A stretch of DNA of 64,000 nucleotides from a virus: the IMG/VR virus record IMGVR_UViG_3300025137_004926. One strand, written 5' to 3'. How positions within the stretch are numbered: the stretch's first letter is position 1; each line of letters begins with the position of its first letter. The notes beneath the pieces were generated by a model. It was not told the DNA's origin. It did no database searches and saw only the letters and a program-made list of their open reading frames with translations. Position numbers and translations under genes: made by a program. This document shows positions 2,345-58,595 of the stretch, in pieces.

Positions 2345-2584
2345 ATGGAAATAAAAGATAAAGTGTATGAAATAACTGCACGAAAAATGAAACGACAGGT
2401 CTCTGACTTGAATGATGATACCAATCTAAAGAAAGATTTGGGTGCTGATAGTATCGATACAGTTGAAATTGTATTTGAAGTAGAAGAATTTTATAAAATT
2501 GCTATTCCAGATGAATATGCAGAAAAGATACATACTATCGGTGATGCAGTCAAGTGCGTAGAGGACATGTTTAATAATCAATAG
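2345..2584 (+). CDS. acpP: acyl carrier protein
   Basis: DLGADSIDTVEIV phosphopantetheine-Ser motif, 79 aa, acidic. Confidence 0.9.
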   Translation: MEIKDKVYEITARKMKRQVSDLNDDTNLKKDLGADSIDTVEIVFEVEEFYKIAIPDEYAEKIHTIGDAVKCVEDMFNNQ

Positions 2585-9391: not shown

Positions 9392-10461
9392 AATTTCTCT
9401 CTGCTATTGTGTGATAGAACTTTTTTAAGTGCTAGTTTAGAACTTACACCATCAAATTGCAAATTGCAATGGTCGTTGCCATAGCATATCGTATCTTCTG
9501 GTAATCTCCATAAGAAATCTATTGCATTTTGATGACTTTGTTTACTTGTCTTTAGTAGGTTACTTGGTATTCTTTTTAATGCACCGTCCCACCATATCAT
9601 TCCTTGCCCATTAGTGTCAATAGAACTAATATCTTTTATATTCATTCTATGCCACTTATGATTTAAACTTTTATATTTGTTCCAGTGTTCTTGCCATTTG
9701 TCTCCGAAATGATTCTGTACATCTTCCCATACGACTTTCCATTTTCTATCTTCACTAGTAAATTTCTTTCTATTCCAAAGTGACATGCTAGGAAATTTAT
9801 TGTTAAGATGTTCTATCCATGATTCAAAATCATTTCCATCCCAATTTTCAATAGTATACTTGTGAACATGAAGACTTATCTTTGAGATATCGACATGATG
9901 TATTACAGACTTCTCATTAAACCCATGATGGTCTAATATACAGTTAATGAAAAATCCACTGCTTACTGTTATTGCCCAATCAACTGGTTTAGTTATATCT
10001 CCGTAGTTTGGTATTTCATTGTGCATTAGATATGTAATATTGCTATCATCAATTAAACTTGTTAAAATAGTATCATGGCTATTGTAGAATTCTTCTGCAC
10101 TATCTGTGTTTAACTTATGAATAAACTTTGCTTCTATGTGGGTTGTGCCGTCGCCCAATGGCTTATGAAACCAAACGTCATCACTAAAATGTATATACTC
10201 ATGCTTTGATGCTTCAATCATTTTTTTATAATGATGCTCGTATGCACCCCATAAGAATATAGTTCCAGCATTGACAACCATAACAATATCGTAATCATGC
10301 AAGTATGTGTAACTGTCCATTACATAATAATCAACTTGGTTTTCTGTTGGTAATCTATTGCATTCTTGATAGTCTAAACTTAATTGTGTATAATTTAGAG
10401 CAATCTTATCAAAATGGTCATCGCCACTTCTAAGTACAACGATTGCATATTTTAATAACAT
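9373..10461 (-). CDS. hypothetical protein
   Basis: 362-aa ORF translationally coupled within the cluster. Confidence 0.75.
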   Translation of the reverse strand: MLLKYAIVVLRSGDDHFDKIALNYTQLSLDYQECNRLPTENQVDYYVMDSYTYLHDYDIVMVVNAGTIFLWGAYEHHYKKMIEASKHEYIHFSDDVWFHKPLGDGTTHIEAKFIHKLNTDSAEEFYNSHDTILTSLIDDSNITYLMHNEIPNYGDITKPVDWAITVSSGFFINCILDHHGFNEKSVIHHVDISKISLHVHKYTIENWDGNDFESWIEHLNNKFPSMSLWNRKKFTSEDRKWKVVWEDVQNHFGDKWQEHWNKYKSLNHKWHRMNIKDISSIDTNGQGMIWWDGALKRIPSNLLKTSKQSHQNAIDFLWRLPEDTICYGNDHCNLQFDGVSSKLALKKVLSHNSREKLWTDKI

Positions 10462-11174
10462 TATAATCTTTCATCTATTTTATCAAAATTATAATAAGCA
10501 ATATGAGTGTCTAACGAAACATCTCTACTAGGATCTTTCTTTTCAAAGAAATAACCCTCTATACTTTTTATAAATCTATTTTGACTATCAGTTATATCCC
10601 AATAATCTTTCCAATGCTTACTGGTTGCAGTATGAATTGTTAAGTTTCTATTAAATATCCATTGTCTTGCATCTTTAGTTTCTTCTTTTATATATTCACG
10701 TGCAGTTTGTTCATCTTTATAGTAACCATGATACTTTGGATAAGTTATATCAAACCCACCTGCACCAAACCAACCTTTATAACAACTTTCTATAGGTCTG
10801 AACACTATTATAATCTTACTCTTAGGAAATGTCTCTGCAATAAAATCTAAGTTGTTTGATATCATATGTGATTTTACAATTCTGTAATCAGTTCTTTTTT
10901 CTTCTTTCCAGGCTTTATCTATTTCATTTAATATTTCTTGTTTTGAGAACTTATTAATCTCATGCCAACCTTCACCGAACTCCATGCCCGTGCCAAAGTA
11001 ACTTCCTAGATGTTGTGCTTTATTAAATTTAGTTGGATGTGTATATTCTCTATCTTCATTTCTATCAGTAGTATTGATGTCAATCTTTTTTGTCATAGAC
11101 AACACATTACTTACTGCACTCCATTTACTTCCAGGAGCACCTGTAAAAAATATAAGTTTACTTTCATCTATCAT
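10461..11174 (-). CDS. P-loop/sulfotransferase-like protein (TGAPGSKWS family)
   Basis: TGAPGSKWS, IVKSH, GGFDITYPKY shared with 8690-9391 (GGWDISYPHY). Confidence 0.5.
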   Translation of the reverse strand: MIDESKLIFFTGAPGSKWSAVSNVLSMTKKIDINTTDRNEDREYTHPTKFNKAQHLGSYFGTGMEFGEGWHEINKFSKQEILNEIDKAWKEEKRTDYRIVKSHMISNNLDFIAETFPKSKIIIVFRPIESCYKGWFGAGGFDITYPKYHGYYKDEQTAREYIKEETKDARQWIFNRNLTIHTATSKHWKDYWDITDSQNRFIKSIEGYFFEKKDPSRDVSLDTHIAYYNFDKIDERL

Positions 11175-11931
11175 TCAAGAACCTTTTTATACCTTTATAG
11201 TTTACATAGTTTTTATCTATTTCATATATGTTTGATGAATTTATATAACGTGAGGGTAGATAACGTCTTTTCCACATATTCATTCTTATAATGTCGTGTA
11301 TATGCATAGAGTACTCAATGTGATGTTTATCATTGAACTTCAATTTATATTTATCCCAAGACCAAATATCTCGTATTGTGAAATCAGAGCCTATCTCTTT
11401 GGCGATTGTTCTTAGCTTTTTCCCATATTCTGTATTTTCTCCACCTAGCCATTTCATTTTAAGAAATCCAGGAAACACCGCAGTTGTTCGCAAGTATCGT
11501 TCGCCTGTTGTATATTCATCATCTATCAAATTTAATACTTTTGCATTAGGAAATCTTTTTAGTAATTTCTCTGGCAATTCGTGTGTGCATATAATAATTC
11601 TATTCTTTTTGATTATCGCATGGCCACCCATCTTTTCGAAGCGTGGGTAAAAGAACCTAGTATAGTAATGTTCCTCATCTGGTATAAAATCTTTTACATA
11701 ATCATGTATTGGCGGCAAGGAACCATTAGGTACTAGTCTATCAAAATGATAGCGACTTATATGCCGTTGTCGTATATCTGAATTTTTAAAATAAACATTC
11801 CATGGGTTAGTACCGTTATCTTTATGACTATACCAATATACATCAGGTAAGCAAGACAATACTCTCCCTAATTTATGTCCACCACATCCCTGTTCAAATG
11901 ATATGAATATAATTCTACTTTCGTCCAACAT
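11164..11931 (-). CDS. hypothetical protein, possible sulfotransferase-like fold
   Basis: IIFISFEQGCGGHKLGRVL N-terminal Gly-rich loop; CTH..FPNAKVLN. Confidence 0.4.
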   Translation of the reverse strand: MLDESRIIFISFEQGCGGHKLGRVLSCLPDVYWYSHKDNGTNPWNVYFKNSDIRQRHISRYHFDRLVPNGSLPPIHDYVKDFIPDEEHYYTRFFYPRFEKMGGHAIIKKNRIIICTHELPEKLLKRFPNAKVLNLIDDEYTTGERYLRTTAVFPGFLKMKWLGGENTEYGKKLRTIAKEIGSDFTIRDIWSWDKYKLKFNDKHHIEYSMHIHDIIRMNMWKRRYLPSRYINSSNIYEIDKNYVNYKGIKRFLNDR

Positions 11932-12613
11932 AGTAGAACATACCTTCCTTGTTTTGTACTAAATCTCCAGTAGCAAACCAATCATCATAAACACATATGT
12001 CACCTTTTACATATAATTCACCAGCGACAATCTTTGTATCACAATAAGTTTTACTACCCATTATTGTTTCTGTTGTCTGTACTTTTATACCAGGTACAAA
12101 TGTTCTATTGATTGCAACTGGACCAACTTCTGTCATGCCCCAATTAACAATAAAGATTGCACCTCTATCAATAAAGTTTTGTATAATGCCACTTTGTACT
12201 CTGTCACTGCCACACATAATGATTTTATCTTCTAGGTTTAGACTATCGAAACTCTTTGTCTTCATTATCGCTCTTGCCATATCAGGTGTTAAGTGACTGT
12301 GCGTAAAATCTTTTATCTTTCTTACCCAAGAAAATGCATTAAACTTTTCTACTTCAATTTCTGCATTGACTTCATAACCTGGTAATGTTTGTGCCAGTAA
12401 TCCACCTGCATGTTTTAATGTACATACAGTTAATATCTTGCTGTCCTTATCTATGCCTTGTACTTCTCTAGCAATAGCATTTGCATATCTTAACTTTTCT
12501 GGTGGTTGAAATATATTCTTAGGAGTACCTGTTGAACCACTGCTTTGTAGTATACAGCCTTCCATAATCATTTCATCGAATTCGTTTTTAATTATATTGT
12601 CTTCTAATTTCAT
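11915..12613 (-). CDS. truncated ANL adenylation (AMP-binding) enzyme
   Basis: SSGSTGTPK, WGMTE, ATGD, YVGRK; lacks the C-terminal subdomain. Confidence 0.8.
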   Translation of the reverse strand: MKLEDNIIKNEFDEMIMEGCILQSSGSTGTPKNIFQPPEKLRYANAIAREVQGIDKDSKILTVCTLKHAGGLLAQTLPGYEVNAEIEVEKFNAFSWVRKIKDFTHSHLTPDMARAIMKTKSFDSLNLEDKIIMCGSDRVQSGIIQNFIDRGAIFIVNWGMTEVGPVAINRTFVPGIKVQTTETIMGSKTYCDTKIVAGELYVKGDICVYDDWFATGDLVQNKEGMFYYVGRK

Positions 12614-13127
12614 TATATTTTTCTACGTTTAATATCCATGTATTTTGTTTAACACTAAAAACTTCACTTACACCTAAGTTTTTAACTAGTTCTATCTTTT
12701 CTAAATGATAAAATGTTTTATCAATTCTATTCATCTTTCCACTTGCATCATGTTCAGTATTTGTTGTGATGTAAATGAATAGATTATTTAAATCTGTTTC
12801 TTTGCTTGATGCATAATCTATTTGATATGGTAACTGACTATGAAAACAATAACTTTGCATGTGGTATCTATTCAGACCTATCTTTTTACTTTCAGTCTGT
12901 GCACCTCTAAACAACGCTCTCCAACCATTAGCCCATGGATGTATTCCACTGACACTAACCATACGTTCATCTACATAGGTTGCATGCCACATGCCACCTT
13001 GTTCCAAACACCATTCAAACTTCATATCTTCTAACGTAGAATTGTTATTGAAGCCTTTTACTTCACATGCTTTTAGAAAGTTTTCAAGTTCGGGTGTTAC
13101 TGTATGTAGTTCCTTAGTAATAATCAT
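12588..13127 (-). CDS. GNAT-like acyltransferase candidate (paralog of 54107-54721)
   Basis: LENFLKAC..NNSTL..MKF, VSVSGIH, VKQNTW align by eye with the 54107 product; ATG at 13127. Confidence 0.45.
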   Translation of the reverse strand: MIITKELHTVTPELENFLKACEVKGFNNNSTLEDMKFEWCLEQGGMWHATYVDERMVSVSGIHPWANGWRALFRGAQTESKKIGLNRYHMQSYCFHSQLPYQIDYASSKETDLNNLFIYITTNTEHDASGKMNRIDKTFYHLEKIELVKNLGVSEVFSVKQNTWILNVEKYNEIRRQYN

Positions 13128-13153
13128 GCTTGACAATCTATTTATATACTCAT

Positions 13154-13182
13154 ATTATACATGATAAATAACATGAAGTCAA
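13154..13182 (-). promoter_or_regulatory. sigma70 promoter for the minus-strand cluster, followed by TATAAATA (13139-13146, minus strand)
   Basis: reverse complement reads TTGACT-17 bp-TATAAT. Confidence 0.7.
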
Positions 13183-13189
13183 TAGAAAA

Positions 13190-13264
13190 GCGGGCGTAAC
13201 TCAGTGGTAGAGTCCCTCGTTGCCAACGAGGTTGTCGTGAGTTCGAATCTCATCGCCCGCTCCA
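13190..13264 (+). tRNA. tRNA-Gly(GCC)
   Basis: GCGGGCG/CGCCCGC stem, CCTCG-TT-GCC-AA-CGAGG, CCA. Confidence 0.95.
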
Positions 13265-13271
13265 AATCTAT

Positions 13272-13347
13272 GGGGCATTAGCTCAGTTGGGAGAGCGCCT
13301 GATTTGCATTCAGGAGGTCGTGGGTTCGACTCCCTCATGCTCCACCA
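13272..13347 (+). tRNA. tRNA-Ala(TGC)
   Basis: GGGGCAT/ATGCTCC stem with G3:U70, CCTGA-TT-TGC-AT-TCAGG, CCA. Confidence 0.95.
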
Positions 13348-13367
13348 TAACATAAAGGAGAGGTAAT

Positions 13368-13562
13368 ATGGTATGGATCTTAATATGGTTGCAGTTGTCG
13401 GCAGGACAATCAATGCAATATTATCACGTAGACACATTTAGTACAGTAGATGAATGTATAGAAGAACTAAGGAAAGCAGTTGTTCTAAAAAACCACAAAA
13501 ATACAGCAATAGACTGTCTTCCTATACAAACAACAAGAGAAGTTAAAATAGATGTCAAATAA
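13368..13562 (+). CDS. small hypothetical protein
   Basis: strong AGGAGAGG SD; hydrophobic N-terminus, two Cys. Confidence 0.65.
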   Translation: MVWILIWLQLSAGQSMQYYHVDTFSTVDECIEELRKAVVLKNHKNTAIDCLPIQTTREVKIDVK

Positions 13563-48863: not shown

Positions 48864-48892
48864 AAAAACTTGATTTAATTTAGGTCAAAAAC

Positions 48893-48920
48893 TTGACAGA
48901 TTAGAGAATCGTGTTATAGT
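48893..48920 (+). promoter_or_regulatory. early-type promoter with GAATC in the spacer
   Basis: TTGACA-7 bp-GAATC-gTGt-TATAGT. Confidence 0.8.
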
Positions 48921-48953
48921 GTATACATAATGAATAACAAAGGAAGTGAAAAT

Positions 48954-50081
48954 ATGTCTGCAAAAGTTTCAACACATGATATGGATGTTCGAATTGTACG
49001 TCCTTCTGATATAAAAGCTGAAATCAATTATGCTTTTAATCGTCAACGACCCGTCTTTATTTGGGGTCCCCCCGGAGTAGGTAAATCTGAGATAGTAGAT
49101 ACTATCACACAAGAAAGGTCAGGTTATATGATTGACCTTAGACTTGCTCTTATGGAACCTACTGATTTACGAGGTATCCCATACTATAATGAGAAAACAA
49201 ACACTATGGATTGGGCAACACCTTCTGACTTACCTAGTCAAGAACTTGCTGACCAGTTTGAAAACATTGTATTGTTTTTAGATGAAATGAACCAAGCACC
49301 GCAATCAGTACAAGCGGCGGCTTATCAACTTATTCTTAATAGGCGTTTAGGTAATTATACTCTACCTGATAATGTTCTTATTGTTGCCGCTGGTAACAGA
49401 GAATCAGATAGAGGTGTTGCTTATAGAATGCCTTCTCCACTTGCTAACAGATTTGTACACTTAGAAATGGGTGTTGACTTTGAAGATTGGCAGACTTGGG
49501 CATTAGAAAATAAAATCCATGCTGATGTTGTAGGTTACTTAACATCTAATAAAATGGACTTGTTTAACTTTGACCCTAGAACTGCTTCAAGGGCTTTCGC
49601 AACTCCTAGGTCTTGGACATTTACATCACAGTTGATGCCGATGGAAGGTGAAACTATTGATGATAGTAAACTACATGACTTGATTGCAGGTACTGTCGGT
49701 GATGGTGTTGCTACTAAGTTTATGGCTCACCGAGCGATTTCAGGTAAACTCCCTAATCCAACTGATATCTTAAAAGGTAAGGTCAAAACGGTATCTAGGG
49801 AAGCTAAGGAAATCTCAGCTATGTTCTCTCTAACTGCTTCACTATGTTATGAGTTAAAAGAACATGCCGAGAAAAACAAAGGTAAGATGGATGAGTTATA
49901 CAAAATGGCTGACAACTTTTTCAGGTTCATGATGGATAACTTTGAAACTGAAATGATTGTTCTAGGTGGTAGAACTGCACTAAAAGTTTACAAACTTCCA
50001 CTAGAGCCTAGGAAGGTTCCTTGTATCGAGGAGTTCTTTAAGAAATACGGTAAGTTGATTATCGAGGCTCATAACGCATAA
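48954..50081 (+). CDS. MoxR-like AAA+ ATPase
   Basis: WGPPGVGKS, LFLDEMN, AAGNR, LANRF, TPRSW. Confidence 0.9.
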   Translation: MSAKVSTHDMDVRIVRPSDIKAEINYAFNRQRPVFIWGPPGVGKSEIVDTITQERSGYMIDLRLALMEPTDLRGIPYYNEKTNTMDWATPSDLPSQELADQFENIVLFLDEMNQAPQSVQAAAYQLILNRRLGNYTLPDNVLIVAAGNRESDRGVAYRMPSPLANRFVHLEMGVDFEDWQTWALENKIHADVVGYLTSNKMDLFNFDPRTASRAFATPRSWTFTSQLMPMEGETIDDSKLHDLIAGTVGDGVATKFMAHRAISGKLPNPTDILKGKVKTVSREAKEISAMFSLTASLCYELKEHAEKNKGKMDELYKMADNFFRFMMDNFETEMIVLGGRTALKVYKLPLEPRKVPCIEEFFKKYGKLIIEAHNA

Positions 50082-50104
50082 GAGCAGACACTTTAATGCG
50101 TTTA

Positions 50105-50148
50105 AGAGGGAGAGAGGTCTTGACTTCTCTCCTTTTTTTTGTTATAAT
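50105..50148 (+). terminator. terminator hairpin with an embedded sigma70 promoter
   Basis: GGGAGAGAGGTC-TT-GACTTCTCTCC plus T8; TTGACT (50120-50125)-17 bp-TATAAT (50143-50148). Confidence 0.7.
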
Positions 50149-50153
50149 TAGAT

Positions 50154-51524
50154 ATGATTTGGGAAACAATTAAAGCACAGGCAAAGATCCACGGCAGTAA
50201 AACTGCCTTGATATGCCATGATAAAAGTTATACATATAGAGAATTAGTTGAGAGTGTAGAAAAACTATCGGCTACATTATCTACAGCCATCAGACCTGGT
50301 GAGCGAGTATTATTTGCAAGTGAAAAAGAATATCATTATGTAAGAATGGTTCTGGCATGTGATGCCTTAGGTGTAACATTTATGCCAACGTTTCCCAATT
50401 TATCAGATGAAATAGTTGAACGTATAAAGAATGCAAGTCACCCAAATCATATAATTCTAAGTGAAGACGATGCACTAAAACTAAAGCCACACAATAAAGG
50501 CTTAATGTTTGCCAAAGGTGCAGACGATTTGTATACTGTTATATTTACTAGCGGTACTACAGGAGAGCCTAAGGCGGTCCCACATACTAGAATGGCTTGC
50601 ATTCAAGGTTCAATACAAAACATCTTAATACAAACTTTAACATCCGATGATGTAATACTTTCACAACTTCCTCCTTGGACTATTGGTGGACTGTATCTAT
50701 ATACACTTCCAGGTCTAATGAAAGGTTCTACAGTAATTTGTGAAATGTTTAATCCAAGACGTTATATACAAATATGTAAAGAATATAAACCTACTATAGG
50801 TATTATTGTTCCTGCTATGATGTTGGCACTATCTAAAATCAGAGGCTGGAAAGAAGCAGACTTATCTCACTGGCGTGAGTTAGGGTTCGGTAGTACAGTT
50901 TGTCCTAAAGAAATGTTACAAGAACTATTTGACAAGGGAGCACCTGCATTAAGAAACTTATATGGTTGTACAGAAACACATGTACCGATGTTTACACATT
51001 TGGCAACTCCAGATGATCCACATCCTTTGCAAATTCATATCACTGATAACTATGATTTCAAATTAGATAGATATGGTGTTGCTTGGATTAAAGGTGATTG
51101 TGTTACAAAAGGATATCTAAATCAAGAGACACCTATAGATGATGATGGTTATTGGAGTACTGGTGATGTACTAGAAACTCAGCATAATCTTTTATTTTAT
51201 AAATCACGTAAAACTGATTTAATAAAAGTCAATAGTTATAATGTATCTCCTGTTAGGATCGAGAATATGTTTCTACCACATACTGATGTTAATGAAGTTT
51301 GCGTAACATACCGTGATAGAGAACTAGGAGAGAAAGAAATTGTTGCAGTAGTCAGTGTGGATAGCAAGATAAATAGTGATGAGTTAATGAAATTTGTTAA
51401 AGATAAGCTATTTCAGTACGAATTGCCCAAAGAGATTATTATTACAACAGATCCATTACCAAGAAACCCTATGGGAAAAGTTCAGAGACATGTTGTCAGG
51501 GAAAAGTTTGTGGAGACAGAATGA
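50154..51524 (+). CDS. acyl-CoA synthetase / fatty acyl-AMP ligase (ANL family)
   Basis: FTSGTTGEPK, YGCTE, STGD, PRNPMGKV. Confidence 0.9.
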   Translation: MIWETIKAQAKIHGSKTALICHDKSYTYRELVESVEKLSATLSTAIRPGERVLFASEKEYHYVRMVLACDALGVTFMPTFPNLSDEIVERIKNASHPNHIILSEDDALKLKPHNKGLMFAKGADDLYTVIFTSGTTGEPKAVPHTRMACIQGSIQNILIQTLTSDDVILSQLPPWTIGGLYLYTLPGLMKGSTVICEMFNPRRYIQICKEYKPTIGIIVPAMMLALSKIRGWKEADLSHWRELGFGSTVCPKEMLQELFDKGAPALRNLYGCTETHVPMFTHLATPDDPHPLQIHITDNYDFKLDRYGVAWIKGDCVTKGYLNQETPIDDDGYWSTGDVLETQHNLLFYKSRKTDLIKVNSYNVSPVRIENMFLPHTDVNEVCVTYRDRELGEKEIVAVVSVDSKINSDELMKFVKDKLFQYELPKEIIITTDPLPRNPMGKVQRHVVREKFVETE

Positions 51525-53215
51525 AGAATAAAGTAAATAAAATTGTCATTCTAGGTGGCGGTGCGGCAGGTTGGTTCACTGCTGGATATTTAAAATACAA
51601 AAATCCTAATATTGATATAACATTAATTGAAAGTAAAAAGATAGGCATCGTTGGTGTAGGCGAAAGTACTATACCTCAACTTGGTGACTTCTTTAAAGAA
51701 ATGGGCATTGAAGAACGTGACTGGATGAGCCATACAAATTCAATATACAAACTAGGTAATAAGTTTGTTGGTTGGAATAAAGAAGGCAACAGAGACCATG
51801 TCACTAATCACTGGAACTGTTCTAAATTTGAAGAACAGTATTTTTCATTCTCATTTGCTTTACCTGAAAAACATTTAACAACAAGTTTCTATCATCAATT
51901 ACAAACAAAAGATTTCTTTACTAACTCAAAAGGTGATCCTGGTGTAGATGATAAATGGAATGATTACTGGTTGCAATTATGCCGTGATGGCAGAAAGAAC
52001 TGGTGGGAAATGTCTGAGGATATGCAAGAGCAAACATATTTAATGGACATGAACAAAGCACCATTTGATATGGATGATAATATTCTCATTGGTAACTGGC
52101 AGGCAAAAACATATCATGTAGATGCAGAAAGATTTCCAGAAGTAGTTAGAGATAGAGTTGCATTGCCTAGTGGTGTAAAGCATGTTTGGGGTCACGTAAA
52201 AGATATTGTAAAAGATAATGAAGGTTACGTAGAAAAATTAGTATTAGAAGATGGATCAGAATTTGAAGCAGATTTATTCTGTGATGCAACAGGCTTCAAT
52301 CGTTTACTAACAGGAACAATGAATAATGGTTGGCATGATTATGACCATATCTTTACACGTGATGCGATTGTAGGTCCAGTAGAATACAAAGATGTGTATT
52401 CAGAGTTTAGACCTTACACACAATCATATGCAGGCGATGAAGGTTGGACATTTATTATCTCACTATTCAATCGTATGGGTTCAGGATATATCTTTGATAA
52501 AACTGAGATAAGCCCAGAAGAAGCTAAAGAAAAGTTTATGAAGTATTGGGATGGGTATAAGTTTATTAAAGAACCAAGACATATTACATGGGAGTCAGGT
52601 CGTATGAAAACTCCTTGGAATAAAAATGTAGTTGGTATCGGAATGGCTGGTGCGTTTGTAGAACCAATGGAAGCTAATTCGTTGTATGTCGCACAGGCAT
52701 CTATTCAGTTAGTACATAGAATTATCAATCGTGCTAAAGATGAAGATGCAGTAATCAATCCTTCGCAACTTTATGCATACAATAGAAACATGTGCCAATT
52801 AGAAGATGGTATTGCAGACTTTGTTGCTTATCACTTTACTCTATCAGATAGAGAAGACACACCTTTCTGGCGTAAGCAAAAGCAGTTAGGTATAGAAAGA
52901 AATCATAAAGAAGCATGTTGGAATGAATATAATAGACCTACAAACCACATAGGTAATGGTGTGTATCCAGACTACATGTGGGCTATGTTAGCCGTGTATT
53001 TGAACAAGTTTGATGATAGTGTCAAACTAAATACTAGAAAAGAATTAATGGAAAAAGCCAATATCATGTTTGAATACTGTAATAAAATGAGTAAAGAAAA
53101 CGGCAAGTATGCACCACATGCCTACGATTGGCACCGTAAGTTTTTATTTGAAGGAAAAGATTACAAACAAGTATTGGAAGAAGCACTAGCAAAAGTATCT
53201 AGGAATATTGCATAA
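51521..53215 (+). CDS. tryptophan-halogenase-family flavoprotein
   Basis: GGGAAG, VGVGEST, YKLG, DATGF, FVEPMEA; WxWxIP replaced by WTFIIS. Confidence 0.85.
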   Translation: MKNKVNKIVILGGGAAGWFTAGYLKYKNPNIDITLIESKKIGIVGVGESTIPQLGDFFKEMGIEERDWMSHTNSIYKLGNKFVGWNKEGNRDHVTNHWNCSKFEEQYFSFSFALPEKHLTTSFYHQLQTKDFFTNSKGDPGVDDKWNDYWLQLCRDGRKNWWEMSEDMQEQTYLMDMNKAPFDMDDNILIGNWQAKTYHVDAERFPEVVRDRVALPSGVKHVWGHVKDIVKDNEGYVEKLVLEDGSEFEADLFCDATGFNRLLTGTMNNGWHDYDHIFTRDAIVGPVEYKDVYSEFRPYTQSYAGDEGWTFIISLFNRMGSGYIFDKTEISPEEAKEKFMKYWDGYKFIKEPRHITWESGRMKTPWNKNVVGIGMAGAFVEPMEANSLYVAQASIQLVHRIINRAKDEDAVINPSQLYAYNRNMCQLEDGIADFVAYHFTLSDREDTPFWRKQKQLGIERNHKEACWNEYNRPTNHIGNGVYPDYMWAMLAVYLNKFDDSVKLNTRKELMEKANIMFEYCNKMSKENGKYAPHAYDWHRKFLFEGKDYKQVLEEALAKVSRNIA

Positions 53216-53940
53216 TGACATACCAAAATAAAGTAACATTGAAAGTATTTTTTATGTTAGCAGTAGCCGTGATTGGAATACCTGCTTACTTCTATATGGG
53301 CGGTTCATGGCAACTTGCTCTTGCTTTTACTTTATATGGTTGTGTTACTAATGCATTATCACAAATTGCATATCATAGATGGTTGTGTCACGACCAGTTT
53401 GTTCCACATATACTAGGACGTTTAGCAATGCTATATGGTATTGTTATGAGTGCTAATGGTAGTCCTATACAATATGTTTACTCACATTTAAATCATCATA
53501 AGAATTCAGATAAAGAAAAAGATACACACAATCCAGCAGAGTTAGGATTGTTTAAAATGTGGTTAGGTCAGTATAAGACACCAGAAGATTTTATTAGTTT
53601 GCGTTTTTTATTAAGAAAACGTGATGTAGTTTTTGTTGATAGACATTACTGGAAACTATATGTATTGTTCACATTAATACATTTCATCATAACACCTTGG
53701 TTAGTTGTATGGCAAGCATTTAATTTTACTCATATGTGGGTAGCATTAACTTGGTTAAACTATGCGGCTCACAAAGATGGTGGACCTAGTAAACTAACTG
53801 GCTTTGCAAACGTATGGATGATGGGTGAAGGGTGCCATGATATACATCATAATTATGCTAATAGATTAGATATGTCACATGATGATTTAACAGATTGGGC
53901 TGGCAGATATTATATACCAGCATTGTTGGCTAAAAGATGA
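53215..53940 (+). CDS. membrane fatty acid desaturase
   Basis: His boxes HRWLCH, HLNHH, HDIHH. Confidence 0.88.
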   Translation: MTYQNKVTLKVFFMLAVAVIGIPAYFYMGGSWQLALAFTLYGCVTNALSQIAYHRWLCHDQFVPHILGRLAMLYGIVMSANGSPIQYVYSHLNHHKNSDKEKDTHNPAELGLFKMWLGQYKTPEDFISLRFLLRKRDVVFVDRHYWKLYVLFTLIHFIITPWLVVWQAFNFTHMWVALTWLNYAAHKDGGPSKLTGFANVWMMGEGCHDIHHNYANRLDMSHDDLTDWAGRYYIPALLAKR

Positions 53941-54107
53941 GAAGTTTATTAAAAATATGGCAGTATGCCTTAGGGTCTTACTCAGATGATAAGACAAAAC
54001 CTTATGACACACAAATGTTAATCATAAGAACTTTTTGGGTACTACTACACATTACTACATGTGTAATGATTATACTAGGTAACGGTCATTTAATGGGTTG
54101 GTGGTAA
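53937..54107 (+). CDS. small membrane protein (not in ORF track)
   Basis: MRSLLKIWQYALGSYSDDKTKPYD...GNGHLMGWW*; ATGA and TAATG coupling on both sides. Confidence 0.7.
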   Translation: MRSLLKIWQYALGSYSDDKTKPYDTQMLIIRTFWVLLHITTCVMIILGNGHLMGWW

Positions 54108-54721
54108 TGAAAGTATTAGAAACATTTACTGGTGCACAAAATTATGAATTTAAAGTTGTAGAATACGACAGTAGTATGAAAGCAGACCTAGAAGAATTTT
54201 GTCAGAAATGTGACAAGGCAGGCATACTAAATAATGCTAGTCTCAAAGCATTAAAGTTTGGCAAATGGGGTTCACAAGAGAACTGGTGGTTTGTTTATCA
54301 TGAGGATAAAATAATATCAATGGCAGGAGCACATTACTTGCCACATGTACATGATACATGTTATATGATAAATTATAGATTAGCAACATTACCTGAGTGG
54401 CGTAATATGGCAGATGATAGACAGAATACTAGAAGAATGTATCATGAGTTTGGATTTGCAAGATTAGTTCCTTTTATGGCTGATTGGGCTGTTGAACAAG
54501 GTGCAACTGATTGTGTAGTGACTACCGCATCAGAAGACCACAGTGACGATAGAAGTGGTACGATGCACAAGATATGGAGATTTGCTTACGTGGCTTGGCC
54601 ACATGAAGATAAGTTATCTCTATTGCATAAGGATTTCCCATTGTATGGGATTAAGCAAGATGTATGGAGATTTAATTGGAGAAACTTTCGTACAGGTGAA
54701 AGGATAGAATATGCTAGATAA
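54107..54721 (+). CDS. GNAT-like acyltransferase candidate
   Basis: IISMAGAH, YRLATLPEWR (GNAT motif-A-like), WAVEQGA. Confidence 0.5.
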   Translation: MKVLETFTGAQNYEFKVVEYDSSMKADLEEFCQKCDKAGILNNASLKALKFGKWGSQENWWFVYHEDKIISMAGAHYLPHVHDTCYMINYRLATLPEWRNMADDRQNTRRMYHEFGFARLVPFMADWAVEQGATDCVVTTASEDHSDDRSGTMHKIWRFAYVAWPHEDKLSLLHKDFPLYGIKQDVWRFNWRNFRTGERIEYAR

Positions 54722-55487
54722 AATAACATATGGTTGGAAAATGAGAATACTATGGATTGTATTGCATATTGTATTAATTTACAGTATTATATCAGCGCCA
54801 GAGTATTTTTGGTATTCATTTGTATGGGGTTGCATAACAACTATGGTAGGTGGCTTTGCTGGTTGGCATAGATATTGGGCTCATAGAAGTTATCAGACAG
54901 GAAGGAAAAGACAAGTACTTCTTCTTTGGTGGGGTGCATTGGGCTTTCCAGGTAAACCACTTCCTACTCTAGGTGGACATAGATTACATCACAAATATGC
55001 AGATGTAGAAGGTATGGATATTCATTCACCAAGAGAAAAATCATGGTGGGAAAACTTGATGGGTTTTTATGAAGACTTCCCTCCTGAACGTAGAATTTTT
55101 AAAGACTTGTATTTGGATCCACAAGTAAGATTTATGCAACGATATTATTTTCAAATTATAACAGTTGCAATGATTGTATTATTCTTAATCGATCCAATCT
55201 TACCCGGTTACGTATTGGGTATCACAGGTGTATATCAATTTTGGGTAGGTACATTCGGTATAGTACACTTACTACATATATTTGGTAAATCAGACCATGA
55301 CACAGGAGACGATAGTAAAAATAGTTGGTTACTTGCAGTGTTTACATTCGGAGAAGGTTGGCATAACAATCATCATAACAATAGTTTAAGTTATACCACA
55401 CAAGAAAAATGGTATCAGTTTGACCCGACCGGGTTAGTAATTAAATATTTTATAGCAACGGATTTAACACATGACCGTATATATTAA
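54711..55487 (+). CDS. delta-9-like acyl-lipid/acyl-CoA desaturase
   Basis: HRYWAHRSY, HRLHH, DIHSP, GEGWHNNHH, QFDPTG. Confidence 0.92.
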   Translation: MLDKITYGWKMRILWIVLHIVLIYSIISAPEYFWYSFVWGCITTMVGGFAGWHRYWAHRSYQTGRKRQVLLLWWGALGFPGKPLPTLGGHRLHHKYADVEGMDIHSPREKSWWENLMGFYEDFPPERRIFKDLYLDPQVRFMQRYYFQIITVAMIVLFLIDPILPGYVLGITGVYQFWVGTFGIVHLLHIFGKSDHDTGDDSKNSWLLAVFTFGEGWHNNHHNNSLSYTTQEKWYQFDPTGLVIKYFIATDLTHDRIY

Positions 55488-56619
55488 TGACCTGTCTTGC
55501 TTTACACCTTTCGGTGATTTAGAGCAAACATGGAAGGGCGTAACAGAAAACAAAGTAGCATATGGACCTATTACTAAGTTTGATCCAAATGAAAGTAGAT
55601 ACACACGAAGCAAAGTAGCAGGTGAGTTTCATTTTAATGCAGAAGATTATCCTATCATAACAGAATCAGAACGTGATAGACTTCCAGAATCTAATCAATG
55701 GGCGTTAGCATTAGCAAGTAAAATAGATTTAGATACAATAGATAAAAGTAGAACAGGTGTTATTGTTTCACCAGGCTTTTCAATGTACTTAGAAATACTA
55801 AAAGCAAATAAGGATAATGCAGATAACATTTATCATTACTGTCCTGATATGATTGCACACAATATAAACATGAAATATGGTTTAACTGGTGCTAGTGCAA
55901 TAACATTAACTGCCTGTAGTACAGGTATCTACAGTGTTATATGGGCTTCTATGATGATTGAAATGGGAATGATAGACCATGCTTTAGCAGGCTCAGTAGA
56001 TGTAACAATACAACCAGACGCATTCAAACAGATGGGTAAACTAAGAGCCTTATCAACCAAATATAATGATACACCAAAGAAAGCATCAAGACCATATGAT
56101 ATCGGACGTGATGGATTAGTATTAAGTGAAGGTGGCGCAATATTCTTATTAAGTAAAGATAAGACAAATAAAACAATTTGTCAAATAGATGGGTATGCAG
56201 TAAACAACGATGCATATCAAACTGTGGCACCACATCCTAACGGAAAAGAAGTACAAAAATGCATGTCAGATGCGTTGAAAGGTTCAACACCTAGTCTTAT
56301 TAATGTTCACGGAACATCAACACCAATGGGTGACTATGCAGAACTAGATGCTATCAATAGATTAGGATTACAAGATGTACCGATAGTTGCTAACAAATCG
56401 CAGTTAGGACACTGTATGGGAGCCGCAGGCTCTGTAGAGTTAGCTATGTCTATTATGTCTCTAAAACACGCTATTATACCGCCTACGGTCAACGTAGAAG
56501 CGTTTGAAGAAGGATATAGTCCAAAGATATACAATACGTCAACTAGTGCAGAAATAACGTCTGTATTGTGTAATTCTTTCGGTTTTGGCGGTACGAATGC
56601 TAGTATTTTAATTAGCTAA
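55471..56619 (+). CDS. beta-ketoacyl-ACP synthase II (FabF-like)
   Basis: TACSTG, SRPYDIGRDG, HGTST, KSQLGH, NSFGFGGTN (Cys-His-His intact). Confidence 0.92.
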   Translation: MTVYINDLSCFTPFGDLEQTWKGVTENKVAYGPITKFDPNESRYTRSKVAGEFHFNAEDYPIITESERDRLPESNQWALALASKIDLDTIDKSRTGVIVSPGFSMYLEILKANKDNADNIYHYCPDMIAHNINMKYGLTGASAITLTACSTGIYSVIWASMMIEMGMIDHALAGSVDVTIQPDAFKQMGKLRALSTKYNDTPKKASRPYDIGRDGLVLSEGGAIFLLSKDKTNKTICQIDGYAVNNDAYQTVAPHPNGKEVQKCMSDALKGSTPSLINVHGTSTPMGDYAELDAINRLGLQDVPIVANKSQLGHCMGAAGSVELAMSIMSLKHAIIPPTVNVEAFEEGYSPKIYNTSTSAEITSVLCNSFGFGGTNASILIS

Positions 56620-56623
56620 AAAC

Positions 56624-56651
56624 TTGACAATATCACGAATCGTGTTATTAT
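56624..56651 (+). promoter_or_regulatory. early-type promoter with GAATC in the spacer
   Basis: TTGACA-7 bp-GAATC-gTGt-TATTAT. Confidence 0.8.
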
Positions 56652-56684
56652 GTATACATAATGAAAGAAAAAGGTGACTCAAAT

Positions 56685-58004
56685 ATGCAAGTAGAAAAAG
56701 CACAATCAGTAGACGATATTGTTGATAATGCATTAAAAGGTGCAGGCATCGAAATTGATGAAAATTCAAGCGAACCTGTAGTATTCGACTATACTGATAA
56801 AGAAGTCAAAGAAATGATTGTCGCTGGTAGAGTAAGAATGCTTATCAAACATCCATTCTTTGGTACACTTGCTACAAGATTAAAATTAGTTGAGGCAGAA
56901 TGGTGTCCAACAGCCGCAGTTGACGGCAAACATTTTTATTATAACTGTGATTTTTTCAGAACTCTAACATCGGAAGAGATTGACTTTGTAGTAGGTCATG
57001 AGGTTCTTCACTGTGTTTATGACCATTGTGGTGAAGGTGGTCGTCTATTTGATTTTGATGAAAAGAATCGTGATGCTCAACTTTGGAACGTAGCCGCTGA
57101 CTATAAAGTTAATCAAGGCTGTGTTGAAAGTAGAATTGGTGTCATGCCAAAATCTGCATTATTTGATACAAAATATCATGGTAAGTACACTGAGGAAATT
57201 TATCAACATCTGAAACAAACAGGTCAAGGTCAAGACAAAAAAACACTTGACCAACATATCATGGGTAATGGTAATGATTCAACAGGTGGTACTGGTGAAA
57301 CTGATCCTACAGGACGTAAAGCACCAATCAAAATTTCTAAGGAAGAAGCAAAACAACTTAAAGACCAAATGAAACAGGCTGTTATTCAAGCGGCTCAAAC
57401 TGCTGGTGCTGGTAATATGCCTGGTGATATCAAAAGACTTGTTAAGTCTATGACAGAACCTAAGATGGATTGGCGACAGTTACTTAATACATCTATTCTA
57501 AGTTTACTTAAATCAGATTTCACATGGATGAAACAATCAAGAAAATCTAGGTCAATGGGTGTTTATCTTCCTGGTCAAGATAACGATACTATGATTGATT
57601 TAGGTATCGGTCTTGATGTTTCAGGTTCTATTGATAATCAAATGTTGGCTGACTTCATGGGTGAAGTTGGAGGCATCATGCAACAGTTTCAGGACTTTAG
57701 ACTTAGAGTTTGGACTTTCGATACTGAGGTTAATGAATTTTCATTCAAAGAATTTACTCCGATGAATGCAGATGAAATTAAAGACTATGAGATTAAAGGC
57801 GGTGGTGGTACTGACTTTGATTGTAACTTTAGTTTCATGGAACAAAACGATATCAATCCTGATAAGTTTGTAATGTTTACTGATGGGTATCCATTTGGTA
57901 GTTGGGGCAATCCAAACTACTGTGATACACTATTTGTTATTCATGGAAGTGAATCAATCATCCCACCATTTGGCGAACACGCCTACTATCAAAAAGCCGC
58001 ATAA
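56685..58004 (+). CDS. DUF2201-type metallopeptidase + VWA protein (MoxR partner)
   Basis: PFFG, TAAVDG, HEVLH, DVSGS MIDAS, GGGGTDF, FTDG. Confidence 0.85.
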   Translation: MQVEKAQSVDDIVDNALKGAGIEIDENSSEPVVFDYTDKEVKEMIVAGRVRMLIKHPFFGTLATRLKLVEAEWCPTAAVDGKHFYYNCDFFRTLTSEEIDFVVGHEVLHCVYDHCGEGGRLFDFDEKNRDAQLWNVAADYKVNQGCVESRIGVMPKSALFDTKYHGKYTEEIYQHLKQTGQGQDKKTLDQHIMGNGNDSTGGTGETDPTGRKAPIKISKEEAKQLKDQMKQAVIQAAQTAGAGNMPGDIKRLVKSMTEPKMDWRQLLNTSILSLLKSDFTWMKQSRKSRSMGVYLPGQDNDTMIDLGIGLDVSGSIDNQMLADFMGEVGGIMQQFQDFRLRVWTFDTEVNEFSFKEFTPMNADEIKDYEIKGGGGTDFDCNFSFMEQNDINPDKFVMFTDGYPFGSWGNPNYCDTLFVIHGSESIIPPFGEHAYYQKAA

Positions 58005-58052: not shown

Positions 58053-58595
58053 ATGAGCGATACATTACTATTGAATGCGGACTACAAACCTCTCGGACTT
58101 TCACCTCTTTCTACATTAACATGGCAAGAAAGCATTAAACTTATCTGGCTTGATAAGATTAACGTAGTCGAATGGCATGACGATTGGGAAGTACATAGTC
58201 CTAGTCACACCATGCGTGTCCCTAGTGTCATTGCAGTACGTGAATATGTGTCTCAGAATAAAGAAGGTATAAATTTCTCACGTAAAAATGTATTCATACG
58301 TGACCATTATACTTGTCAATATTGTTTAGATGCATTCCCTTCAAAAGAACTTACACTGGATCATGTTATACCTAGGTCAAAAGGTGGCAAGTCTGGTTGG
58401 GATAATATGGTATCTGCATGTAAAAAATGTAATCTAGCAAAGGGTTCAAGAACTGATATAAGTCCTGTAAGAGTACCAACTAAACCAAATTTTTACAATC
58501 TAATGTCTCAAAAGAACTTCACAGTAAGGATAAAACACCGTATTTGGTTAAATTACCTTGATTGGCCTGAGAAATATGTTGATTTAGTAGCATAA
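58053..58595 (+). CDS. HNH endonuclease
   Basis: LLLNADY, RDHYTCQYC, LTLDHVIPRSKGG..WDNMVSACKKCN. Confidence 0.92.
   Translation: MSDTLLLNADYKPLGLSPLSTLTWQESIKLIWLDKINVVEWHDDWEVHSPSHTMRVPSVIAVREYVSQNKEGINFSRKNVFIRDHYTCQYCLDAFPSKELTLDHVIPRSKGGKSGWDNMVSACKKCNLAKGSRTDISPVRVPTKPNFYNLMSQKNFTVRIKHRIWLNYLDWPEKYVDLVA

Follow-up and report, generated by a model that had tools for sequence, protein, structure and literature searches.

Routes in which an adenylating enzyme, a carrier protein and a GNAT-fold enzyme act in turn to acylate an amine have precedents in SbzL/SbzG/SbzI of altemicidin biosynthesis and in the synthase FeeM, which makes N-acyl amino acids (PMC11685415), and GdvG of goadvionin, cited there, is a further carrier-protein-dependent GNAT. 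Here we analyze a seven-gene cassette that resembles these systems in part, located at positions 50154 to 56619 of a 64,000-nt stretch (the window) of the IMG/VR virus record IMGVR_UViG_3300025137_004926, which is 103 kb in whole. The cassette consists of seven open reading frames (ORFs) on one strand, and all six junctions between them overlap, by 4, 1, 4, 1, 11, and 17 nt. Their predicted products are the following:

50154..51524, + strand: LIG, 456 aa, an adenylate-forming (ANL) enzyme like acyl/aryl-CoA ligases; core gene
51521..53215, + strand: HAL, 564 aa, a flavin-dependent halogenase, two-component and of the tryptophan type; core gene
53215..53940, + strand: DES1, 241 aa, a membrane di-iron desaturase of divergent delta9 type; accessory gene
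53937..54107, + strand: s56, 56 aa, a hydrophobic (membrane) protein of phrog_1679; in some lineages only
54107..54721, + strand: X207, 204 aa from its likely start (a 207-aa ORF), a GNAT-fold acyltransferase; core gene
54711..55487, + strand: DES2, 258 aa, a desaturase of the delta9 acyl-CoA/acyl-lipid type; accessory gene
55471..56619, + strand: KS, 382 aa, a FabF-like beta-ketoacyl-acyl carrier protein (ACP) synthase; core gene

We found LIG, HAL, the GNAT gene and KS to form a constant core, with the desaturases as plug-in modules in 0, 1 or 2 copies. The explanation that we prefer, with a probability of roughly 0.45, is that the four core enzymes make up a host-dependent acyl pathway that would yield a halogenated acyl amide in the infected cell. 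Like the Sbz, FeeM and GdvG systems, the phage that carries the cassette has an ANL ligase, an ACP with a phosphopantetheinyl transferase (PPTase) and a GNAT fold, and it would share with them the activation of an acid followed by N-acyl transfer. It differs from them in that X207 has no detectable sequence similarity to those GNATs and its use of a carrier is a candidate feature, in that a FabF-like KS and a flavin halogenase are additional members of the cassette, and in that its ACPs are not adjacent and the whole is encoded by a virus.

The jamaicamide starter cassette JamA/JamB/JamC with the halogenase JamD, and the bacterial polyyne clusters, likewise unite a ligase, one or more membrane desaturases, an ACP and a flavin halogenase in one system, and an earlier note on this DNA, made from the sequence by itself, had drawn its analogy there. 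In its specific form, the analogy is not supported. The desaturases of the phage cassette are optional and of a short delta9 type, its ligase appears closer to acyl/aryl-CoA ligases than to the fatty acyl-AMP ligases (FAALs), its ACP lies 48 kb away, and its halogenase is of the two-component tryptophan type, whereas JamD is a single-component flavin-dependent halogenase (FDH) (PMC11725856). In addition, KS and GNAT are core genes here, and a thioesterase was not identified among the cassette genes. With the desaturases numbering 0, 1 or 2, the alkyne/polyyne reading is weakened.

Single parts of the cassette are known from other phages. HAL, like VirX1 and the "tryptophan halogenases" of T4-like cyanophages and pelagiphages (PMC8407142), is a phage-borne PF04820 protein with equivalents of Lys79 and of the catalytic Glu; however, the VirX1-like genes stand alone or beside 2-oxoglutarate oxygenases, whereas HAL belongs to a ligase-GNAT-KS operon, carries an insert of its own of about 100 residues and has a degenerate WxWxIP motif. 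DES1 and DES2 belong to the same delta9 His-box membrane family as vFAD, the DesC-like delta9 lipid desaturases of cyanophages (Roitman et al. 2017, PMC5776448), but they are short (241 to 258 aa), about 35% identical to cellular enzymes, and present in 0 to 2 copies as operon accessories of a jumbo myovirus that is not cyanophage-like. The xanthomonadin and arcuflavin clusters (PMC3949708) resemble the cassette in combining an AMP-ligase, ACP, KS, halogenase and acyltransferases in a system resembling type II fatty acid synthases (FAS); the phage differs in that no chain-length-factor (CLF)-like KS, ketoreductase (KR), dehydratase (DH) or chorismatase was found, nor any evidence of a pigment. 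A full-text literature search returned no description of this operon, which is assembled from known enzyme families with phage precedents in vFAD (PMC5776448) and VirX1 (PMC8407142).

Distribution and conservation of the cassette

Cassette loci (designated here by L numbers, and genome records by G numbers) were gathered through related-locus searches, including one with a LIG alignment. We found the cassette in 41 viral loci, always directly after a gene for a MoxR-type AAA ATPase, and a DUF2201/VWA gene lies downstream of it in every locus long enough to show that flank. In L023 and L024, which are more remotely related (AAA 57% identical), the AAA and VWA genes are adjacent with no cassette between them; the cassette is therefore an insertion. 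LIG, HAL, GNAT and KS occur together in the same order, in overlapping frames and behind one promoter, down to about 58% LIG identity. Each gene of the cassette has a dN/dS ratio of 0.06 to 0.24, which is also the range of the flanking core genes, and all cassette genes are under purifying selection. The constant order and site in 41 loci, the overlapping junctions, the single promoter, the dN/dS values and the conserved catalytic motifs argue for a joint function of these genes.

The operon, likened in the earlier note to a biosynthetic gene cluster, thus proved to be real and phage-borne, and its gene set, for which that note had advised a synteny search, is conserved together. Misassembled host DNA, which had also been raised, is ruled out by a uniform GC content (about 0.35), by the same insertion site in 41 loci and by a complete carrier genome, G001, which has 342,607 bp with direct terminal repeats (DTR) and is rated 100% complete. 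We conclude that a clade of marine jumbo myoviruses carries the cassette as an accessory operon (moron).

When the cassette proteins were all mapped to the 41 loci, the following architectures emerged:

Two desaturases: LIG-HAL-DES1-(s56)-GNAT-DES2-KS, in the window, L002, L004, L009 and L012
One desaturase: LIG-HAL-DES-GNAT-KS, in L010, L058, L064 and L079
One desaturase after KS: LIG-HAL-GNAT-KS-DES, in L077
No desaturase (the commonest): LIG-HAL-GNAT-KS with uncharacterized ORFs, in L060, L065 to L076, L083 and L088
Reduced: LIG truncated, with a distantly related GNAT-like gene, in L081 and L085 to L087

The desaturase-bearing types require several gains or losses on the LIG tree. The reduced forms (L081, L085, L086 and L087, positions 10001 to 13400) occupy the same AAA-VWA site; they consist of a 341- to 357-aa LIG N-domain, a 186-aa distant GNAT-like ORF (23 to 31% identity), an ORF with DUF6356 and, again, an AMP-binding fragment, have neither HAL nor KS, and may be decaying or rearranged cassettes. 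The interval between KS and VWA carries variable extra ORFs in L060 (14939 to 16172), L009 (11207 to 11662), L010 (11149 to 12275) and L012 (11134 to 13002), and looks like a hotspot of gene gain. No informative Pfam match was obtained for these extra ORFs or for the reduced forms in L085 and L087.

The borders of the insertion site in the window and the next gene downstream are these:

48930..50081, + strand: MoxR-type AAA ATPase, phrog_1297; left border
56661..58004, + strand: phrog_1314, a DUF2201 metallopeptidase/VWA protein; right border, preceded by a promoter of its own (56624-56651)
58053-58595: HNH endonuclease (PF14279, PF01844), just downstream of the VWA gene

The PHROGs label of phrog_1314 is "HNH endonuclease," which looks wrong for the VWA protein (56661-58004) given its Pfam domains, DUF2201_N and a VWA-like domain. 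The cassette-bearing sequence also encodes a DNA polymerase of the T4 type, along with a tail protein and five tRNAs. The polymerase is 42 to 48% identical to those of the jumbo myoviruses Phosso, Atu_ph07 and GAP32, and these relatives, together with promoters containing GAATC (see below), suggest an alphaproteobacterial host. The cassette DNA had no match among cultured phages by blastn.

Predicted activities of the cassette enzymes

LIG matched the AMP-binding domain PF00501 (2.2e-49, 168.7 bits) and the AMP-binding_C domain PF13193 (6.5e-08, 33.8 bits). Its P-loop (A3), TSGTTGEPK, is kept in all six lineages compared, and the A10 lysine (PRNPMGK) is matched in five of the six. The best solved relatives, 8weu (4e-31) among them, are a fatty-acyl/feruloyl-CoA synthetase, 4-coumarate-CoA ligases, malonyl-CoA synthetase, MenE and FadD13, with no FAAL among the solved relatives at E<=1e-20. 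In a large protein database, the phage clade of LIG (about 70 clusters) has at least 52% identity, and the next relatives, which are cellular ligases, have at most 28%; on a LIG tree, the phage sequences are monophyletic (100/100) and remote from the cellular ligases. Of the designation as an acyl-AMP ligase in the earlier note, the adenylate-forming part can be kept, but the sense of an FAAL or JamA is not supported; LIG is best described as a putative compact ANL enzyme nearest to acyl/aryl-CoA ligases.

KS has both the N- and the C-terminal ketoacyl-synthase domains, is FabF-like at 8e-75, and aligns end to end with the FabF structure 4jga (1.7e-53). Its score against the FabF equivalog model TIGR03150 is 246.4 bits, below the cut-off of 493.75, and on this basis KS is classed as a FabF-like enzyme, not an orthologous FabF. 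As had been noted for the window, its catalytic residues are intact, and Cys149 (TACSTG), His280 (HGTST) and Lys309/His314 (KSQLGH) are conserved in all lineages.

The same is true of the His boxes of the desaturases, which are HRWLCH, HLNHH and HDIHH in DES1 and HRYWAH, HRLHH and HNNHH in DES2. DES2 matched FA_desaturase PF00487 (6.5e-10, 39.6 bits versus a cut-off of 29.7), and its nearest cellular relatives, about 35% identical, are named stearoyl-CoA or acyl-CoA delta9 desaturases. DES1 has no Pfam match; its family aligns with the DES2/delta9 family across all three His boxes (hhalign 99.4%, E 4e-21). Both are therefore predicted to be short membrane desaturases of the delta9 type. Tandem short delta9-type desaturases, 28 to 35% identical to DES2, are also found apart from the rest of the cassette genes in many viral contigs that are unrelated; such pairs lie near position 10000 in L023, L029, L033, L035, L037, L038 and L040, with three copies in L029.

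HAL matched Trp_halogenase PF04820 (2.4e-90, 304 bits versus a cut-off of 21) and phrog_2928 (1.5e-91). The FAD motif GxGxxG (GGGAAGW in the window; GGGAAG or GGGING across lineages) is present in all lineages. In the alignment with 9luq, Lys77 (YKLGNKF) corresponds to the IKLG lysine and EPME to EPLE; neither varies among six lineages, and the lysine and the EPME glutamate are the equivalents of PrnA K79 and E346. The insert that is particular to HAL spans residues 92 to 195, approximately. Nearest to HAL are the free-substrate ("variant A") tryptophan halogenases RebH, ThaL, PrnA and PyrH, together with the cyanophage VirX1 (9e-54), so that the precedent cited earlier for a phage halogenase is apt; the identity to cyanophage halogenase genes is 26 to 30%. 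HAL is thus probably a two-component enzyme of the tryptophan-halogenase type.

The halogenase also varies independently of its surroundings. The segment 51400..53100 is 93 to 96% identical in nucleotides to L009 versus 67 to 77% to L002, whereas both flanks are 90 to 96% identical to L002, and the protein identities agree with an exchange of this segment. Otherwise near-identical cassettes carry one or the other of two halogenase alleles whose proteins are about 64% identical, and the alignments indicate that the lineages of these phages exchanged the allele as one unit. A scan of GTDB genomes with a pattern from the HAL alignment found no cellular prototype. The nearest outside halogenases, P0249 (from a metagenome-assembled cyanobacterial genome) and P0251 (from a viral contig), have neighbors unrelated to the cassette genes: either an FMN dehydrogenase with a thioesterase, TauE and a polyprenyl synthase, or an aminotransferase with a radical SAM enzyme.

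X207 was the least tractable by sequence. Among 5.8 billion proteins, only seven homologous clusters were found, all confined to this phage cassette. It has no significant family match in Pfam, NCBIfam or PHROGs, its Pfam GNAT matches being below threshold (Acetyltransf_1, E 0.048; Acetyltransf_7, best 0.0042), and a profile search of the PDB gave no match. Its relatives align from residue 4 only, so its start is probably the ATG at 54107. An AlphaFold2 (AF2) model based on ten homologues (pLDDT 76.8, pTM 0.78) had 216 PDB matches by Foldseek at E<=1e-3, all GNAT acyltransferases among the matches listed. VIA, which is independent of Foldseek, gave a Z score of 12.3 to 2r7h over 150 residues (root-mean-square deviation 3.2) and 187 chains at Z>=8. 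The model clearly points to a GNAT fold for X207. Its structural neighbors include the protein N-terminal and lysine acetyltransferases PAT, Naa10 and RimI/J/L, and searches with Foldseek, VIA, VIA-wide, the ESM atlas and profiles returned generic GNAT acetyltransferases only. FeeM, SbzI and enzymes of the LuxI and CurA types are not among the top matches listed from these searches (PDB and Pfam profiles included), and are not thereby excluded.

The small ORF s56 is restricted to the lineages of the window, L002/L003 and L057, where it separates DES1 from the GNAT gene. In L004, L009, L010 and L012 it is missing, and DES1 abuts the GNAT gene.

Promoter and carrier proteins

Consistent with the earlier description of overlapping genes behind a sigma70 promoter of their own, we found a promoter whose boxes are invariant in six lineages. 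It overlaps a second element:

50120..50148, + strand: consensus sigma70 promoter, TTGACT (50120), a 17-nt spacer and a TG-extended TATAAT (50148)
50104..50137, + strand: terminator-like hairpin of the upstream AAA gene, a 15-pair stem followed by a T-run

The ATG of LIG follows the -10 box by 5 nt, and there is no Shine-Dalgarno (SD) sequence; the transcript is therefore probably leaderless. The -35 and -10 boxes are unchanged in the six lineages despite diverged flanking DNA, with 5 to 9 nt to the ATG and, again, no Shine-Dalgarno sequence. The full promoter pattern occurs twice in the window versus 0.06 occurrences expected by chance, and Met1-Ile2 of LIG is invariant among 14 diverse homologues. 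The -35 box lies within the loop and 3' arm of the AAA hairpin, whose terminator-like stem covaries across lineages in the alignment of the promoter region. A leaderless, early polycistronic transcript made by the host sigma70 RNA polymerase is plausible from these features.

The 5' regions of the AAA and VWA genes (48873-48956 and 56608-56687; about 80 nt) are similar to each other. Their promoters contain AAAAACTTGACA, GAATC in the spacer and a TG-extended -10 box, and are followed by ATG...AAAGG...AAATATG; the cassette promoter, unlike these, has no GAATC. Both genes have two in-frame starts, at codon 1 and at codon 9, the latter preceded by an SD-like AAGG. The idea that AAA and VWA are leaderless as well was dropped as unproven, given this SD-preceded in-frame ATG at codon 9.

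There is no gene with a PP-binding domain within 50154-56619. The candidate carrier is encoded 48 kb upstream:

2345..2584, + strand: acyl carrier protein

The earlier identification of this ACP is borne out by TIGR00517 (71.3 bits versus a cut-off of 70.45), and the protein has the serine motif DSID. The complete genome G001 encodes three ACPs and an AcpS-type PPTase (G001:316007). FabD, adh_short_C2 (FabG-type), FabA/FabZ and a flavin reductase were not detected in G001, so malonyl-ACP, any reduction cycle and FADH2 must come from the host. ACPs were found in the cassette-bearing G000, G001 and G005 and in neither of two cassette-less records, one of them 95% complete, a small sample.

Further ACP genes of the phage family lie at G001:243598-248110 (L045), G001:113541-116702 (L043) and G000:102133-102294. 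One of these extra ACPs adjoins a third, weakly FA_desaturase-like ORF (G001:247562-248110) as well as a radical SAM enzyme, and another adjoins cupin and DUF6071 proteins. These neighborhoods suggest that there is more carrier-protein chemistry in these phages.

Proposed pathway and competing explanations

The best reading of the cassette is that an acyl product, possibly halogenated and unsaturated, is handed to an amine by the GNAT enzyme. In the pathway that we propose, LIG would activate a carboxylic acid, fatty or aryl, as an acyl-AMP and pass it to CoA or to a phage ACP. KS would then add C2 units to the thioester using malonyl-ACP of the host, whose FabG/Z/I may process the product, and the desaturases, where present, would put in double bonds. 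The GNAT enzyme would move the acyl group onto an amine (an amino acid, amine or peptide), and HAL, with FADH2 from a host reductase, would halogenate an electron-rich aromatic ring, Trp- or indole-like, of the acceptor or of the starter. Since HAL resembles tryptophan halogenases, a concrete guess at the product would be an N-acyl halo-tryptophan-like lipoamino acid.

Several observations weigh against this proposal. The best PDB relatives of LIG reach only about 1e-31 and are spread over feruloyl-, coumaroyl-, malonyl-, o-succinylbenzoyl (OSB)- and fatty-acyl-CoA ligases. The ACPs lie 26 to 48 kb from the cassette (48 kb upstream and about 28 kb downstream). The WxWxIP motif of HAL is degenerate, reading W-(T/N/A)-F-(I/V)-I-(S/T/P) across lineages and W-T-F-I-I-S in the window, although WxWxIP is absent from some active FDHs, according to the halogenase motif definitions in PMC8407142. 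The CoA P-loop of canonical GNATs, Q/R-x-x-G-x-G/A, is altered in carrier-protein-dependent ones (PMC11685415), and the candidate loop of X207, (N/H)-x-F-G-x-(G/A), placed from the model only, is neither clearly canonical nor clearly altered (variants are NEFHHG in L010 and NCFGNT in L012). No cellular cluster with the architecture of the cassette appeared in the GTDB scan or around the nearest outside halogenases. Lastly, the existence of the reduced or decayed forms (L081, L085-L087) means that the cassette is dispensable.

Among the alternatives, remodeling of membrane lipids fares best, and we consider it unlikely. LIG would recycle free fatty acids in the role of an acyl-CoA/ACP synthetase, KS would elongate them in the manner of FabF, the desaturases would unsaturate them and the GNAT enzyme would make an aminolipid by OlsB-like N-acylation, the purpose being host membrane fluidity or phosphorus economy during infection. 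The family of DES2, which is that of delta9 acyl-CoA/acyl-lipid enzymes, fits this, as do the proven status of DesC-like delta9 desaturases as cyanophage auxiliary metabolic genes (AMGs) (PMC5776448), the desaturase pairs that stand alone in many other phage contigs, the end-to-end alignment of KS with FabF including its Cys-His-His triad, and the reliance of the pathway on the host FAS. However, the halogenase, which would have no role in it, belongs to the constant core, whereas the desaturases can be absent. Moreover, LIG is at most 28% identical to any cellular acyl-CoA ligase, KS falls well under the FabF equivalog cut-off (246 versus 494 bits), and X207 has no sequence link to aminolipid synthases.

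Somewhat less credible is the acylation of a macromolecule, in which the target of N-acylation by the GNAT enzyme would be a ribosomal peptide or a protein (giving a goadvionin/GdvG-like lipopeptide, or modifying a protein of host or phage), with HAL halogenating a Trp residue in it. GNATs that acylate peptides in a carrier-protein-dependent manner exist, GdvG, cited in PMC11685415, being the example; PAT, Naa10 and RimI/J/L, which resemble X207 in structure, act on proteins at the N terminus or on lysine; and s56 is a small ORF within the cassette in some lineages. Against this, most cassettes have no s56, a conserved gene for a precursor-like peptide was not seen, a generic GNAT likeness says nothing about the acceptor, and the early expression that the promoter implies would argue against modification of the virion.

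We regard as more doubtful still an aryl-primed type II polyketide synthase (PKS)/FAS-like route of the kind that makes xanthomonadin, arcuflavin and aryl polyenes. Here LIG would load a hydroxybenzoate- or cinnamate-like acid on the ACP, HAL would halogenate the ring, KS would extend the chain with a host reductase and dehydratase, and an acyltransferase would esterify or amidate the product onto a lipid. Such a starter agrees with the feruloyl-CoA and 4-coumarate-CoA ligases among the best solved relatives of LIG, and the arcuflavin and xanthomonadin clusters do pair an AMP-ligase, ACP, KS, halogenase and acyltransferases, but they also need a CLF-like KS, a KR and a DH (PMC3949708). No adh_short_C2 (FabG-type) KR or FabA/FabZ-type DH was detected in the complete phage genome, neither a CLF-like second KS nor a chorismatase was identified in the cassette, and HAL is closest to halogenases of free Trp.

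It is improbable that the genes are AMGs that share a location but have each a function of its own, without a common pathway. Halogenases and desaturases do occur singly in other marine phages, and the halogenase allele has been exchanged independently of its neighbors, but LIG, HAL, GNAT and KS are always together, ordered alike, overlapping and behind one promoter as LIG diverges to about 58% identity, and X207 is found in this cassette only.

Weakest of all, and hardly to be believed, is a JamABC(D)/polyyne-like route, in which the ligase would load a fatty acid on the ACP, desaturases or acetylenases would form alkynes, and the halogenase, as the alkynyl halogenase JamD does (PMC11725856), would form an alkynyl halide: the gene content is superficially alike, but the commonest cassette type has no desaturases, and the short delta9-type desaturases, the CoA-ligase-like LIG without an FAAL relative at E<=1e-20, the two-component HAL, the non-adjacent ACP and the absence of an identified thioesterase from the cassette all speak against it.

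Returning to the host-dependent acyl pathway, its fuller version would be that one clade of marine jumbo phages makes a halogenated small molecule, lipoamino-acid-like or an acyl amide, early in infection by means of a virus-encoded mini assembly line (ligase, ACP, KS, GNAT enzyme and halogenase), diversified by halogenase swaps and by gain and loss of desaturases; we hold this version as possible and tentative. Being small (about 6.5 kb plus the ACP and PPTase), modular and abundant in marine metagenomes, the system lends itself to direct tests by heterologous expression and could be of use in biocatalytic halogenation. If the proposal is true, the cassette would be a virus-encoded pathway to a halogenated natural product, one without a cellular prototype in the searches made, and its product could serve as a signal, act as an antibiotic on competitors or grazers, or help in taking over the host. 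The VirX1-like "tryptophan halogenases" that are widespread in marine phages, and functionally orphan, would also gain a first pathway context. As a rule, the auxiliary genes of phages encode single enzymes that modify host metabolism, and in that case viruses would make specialized metabolites of their own.

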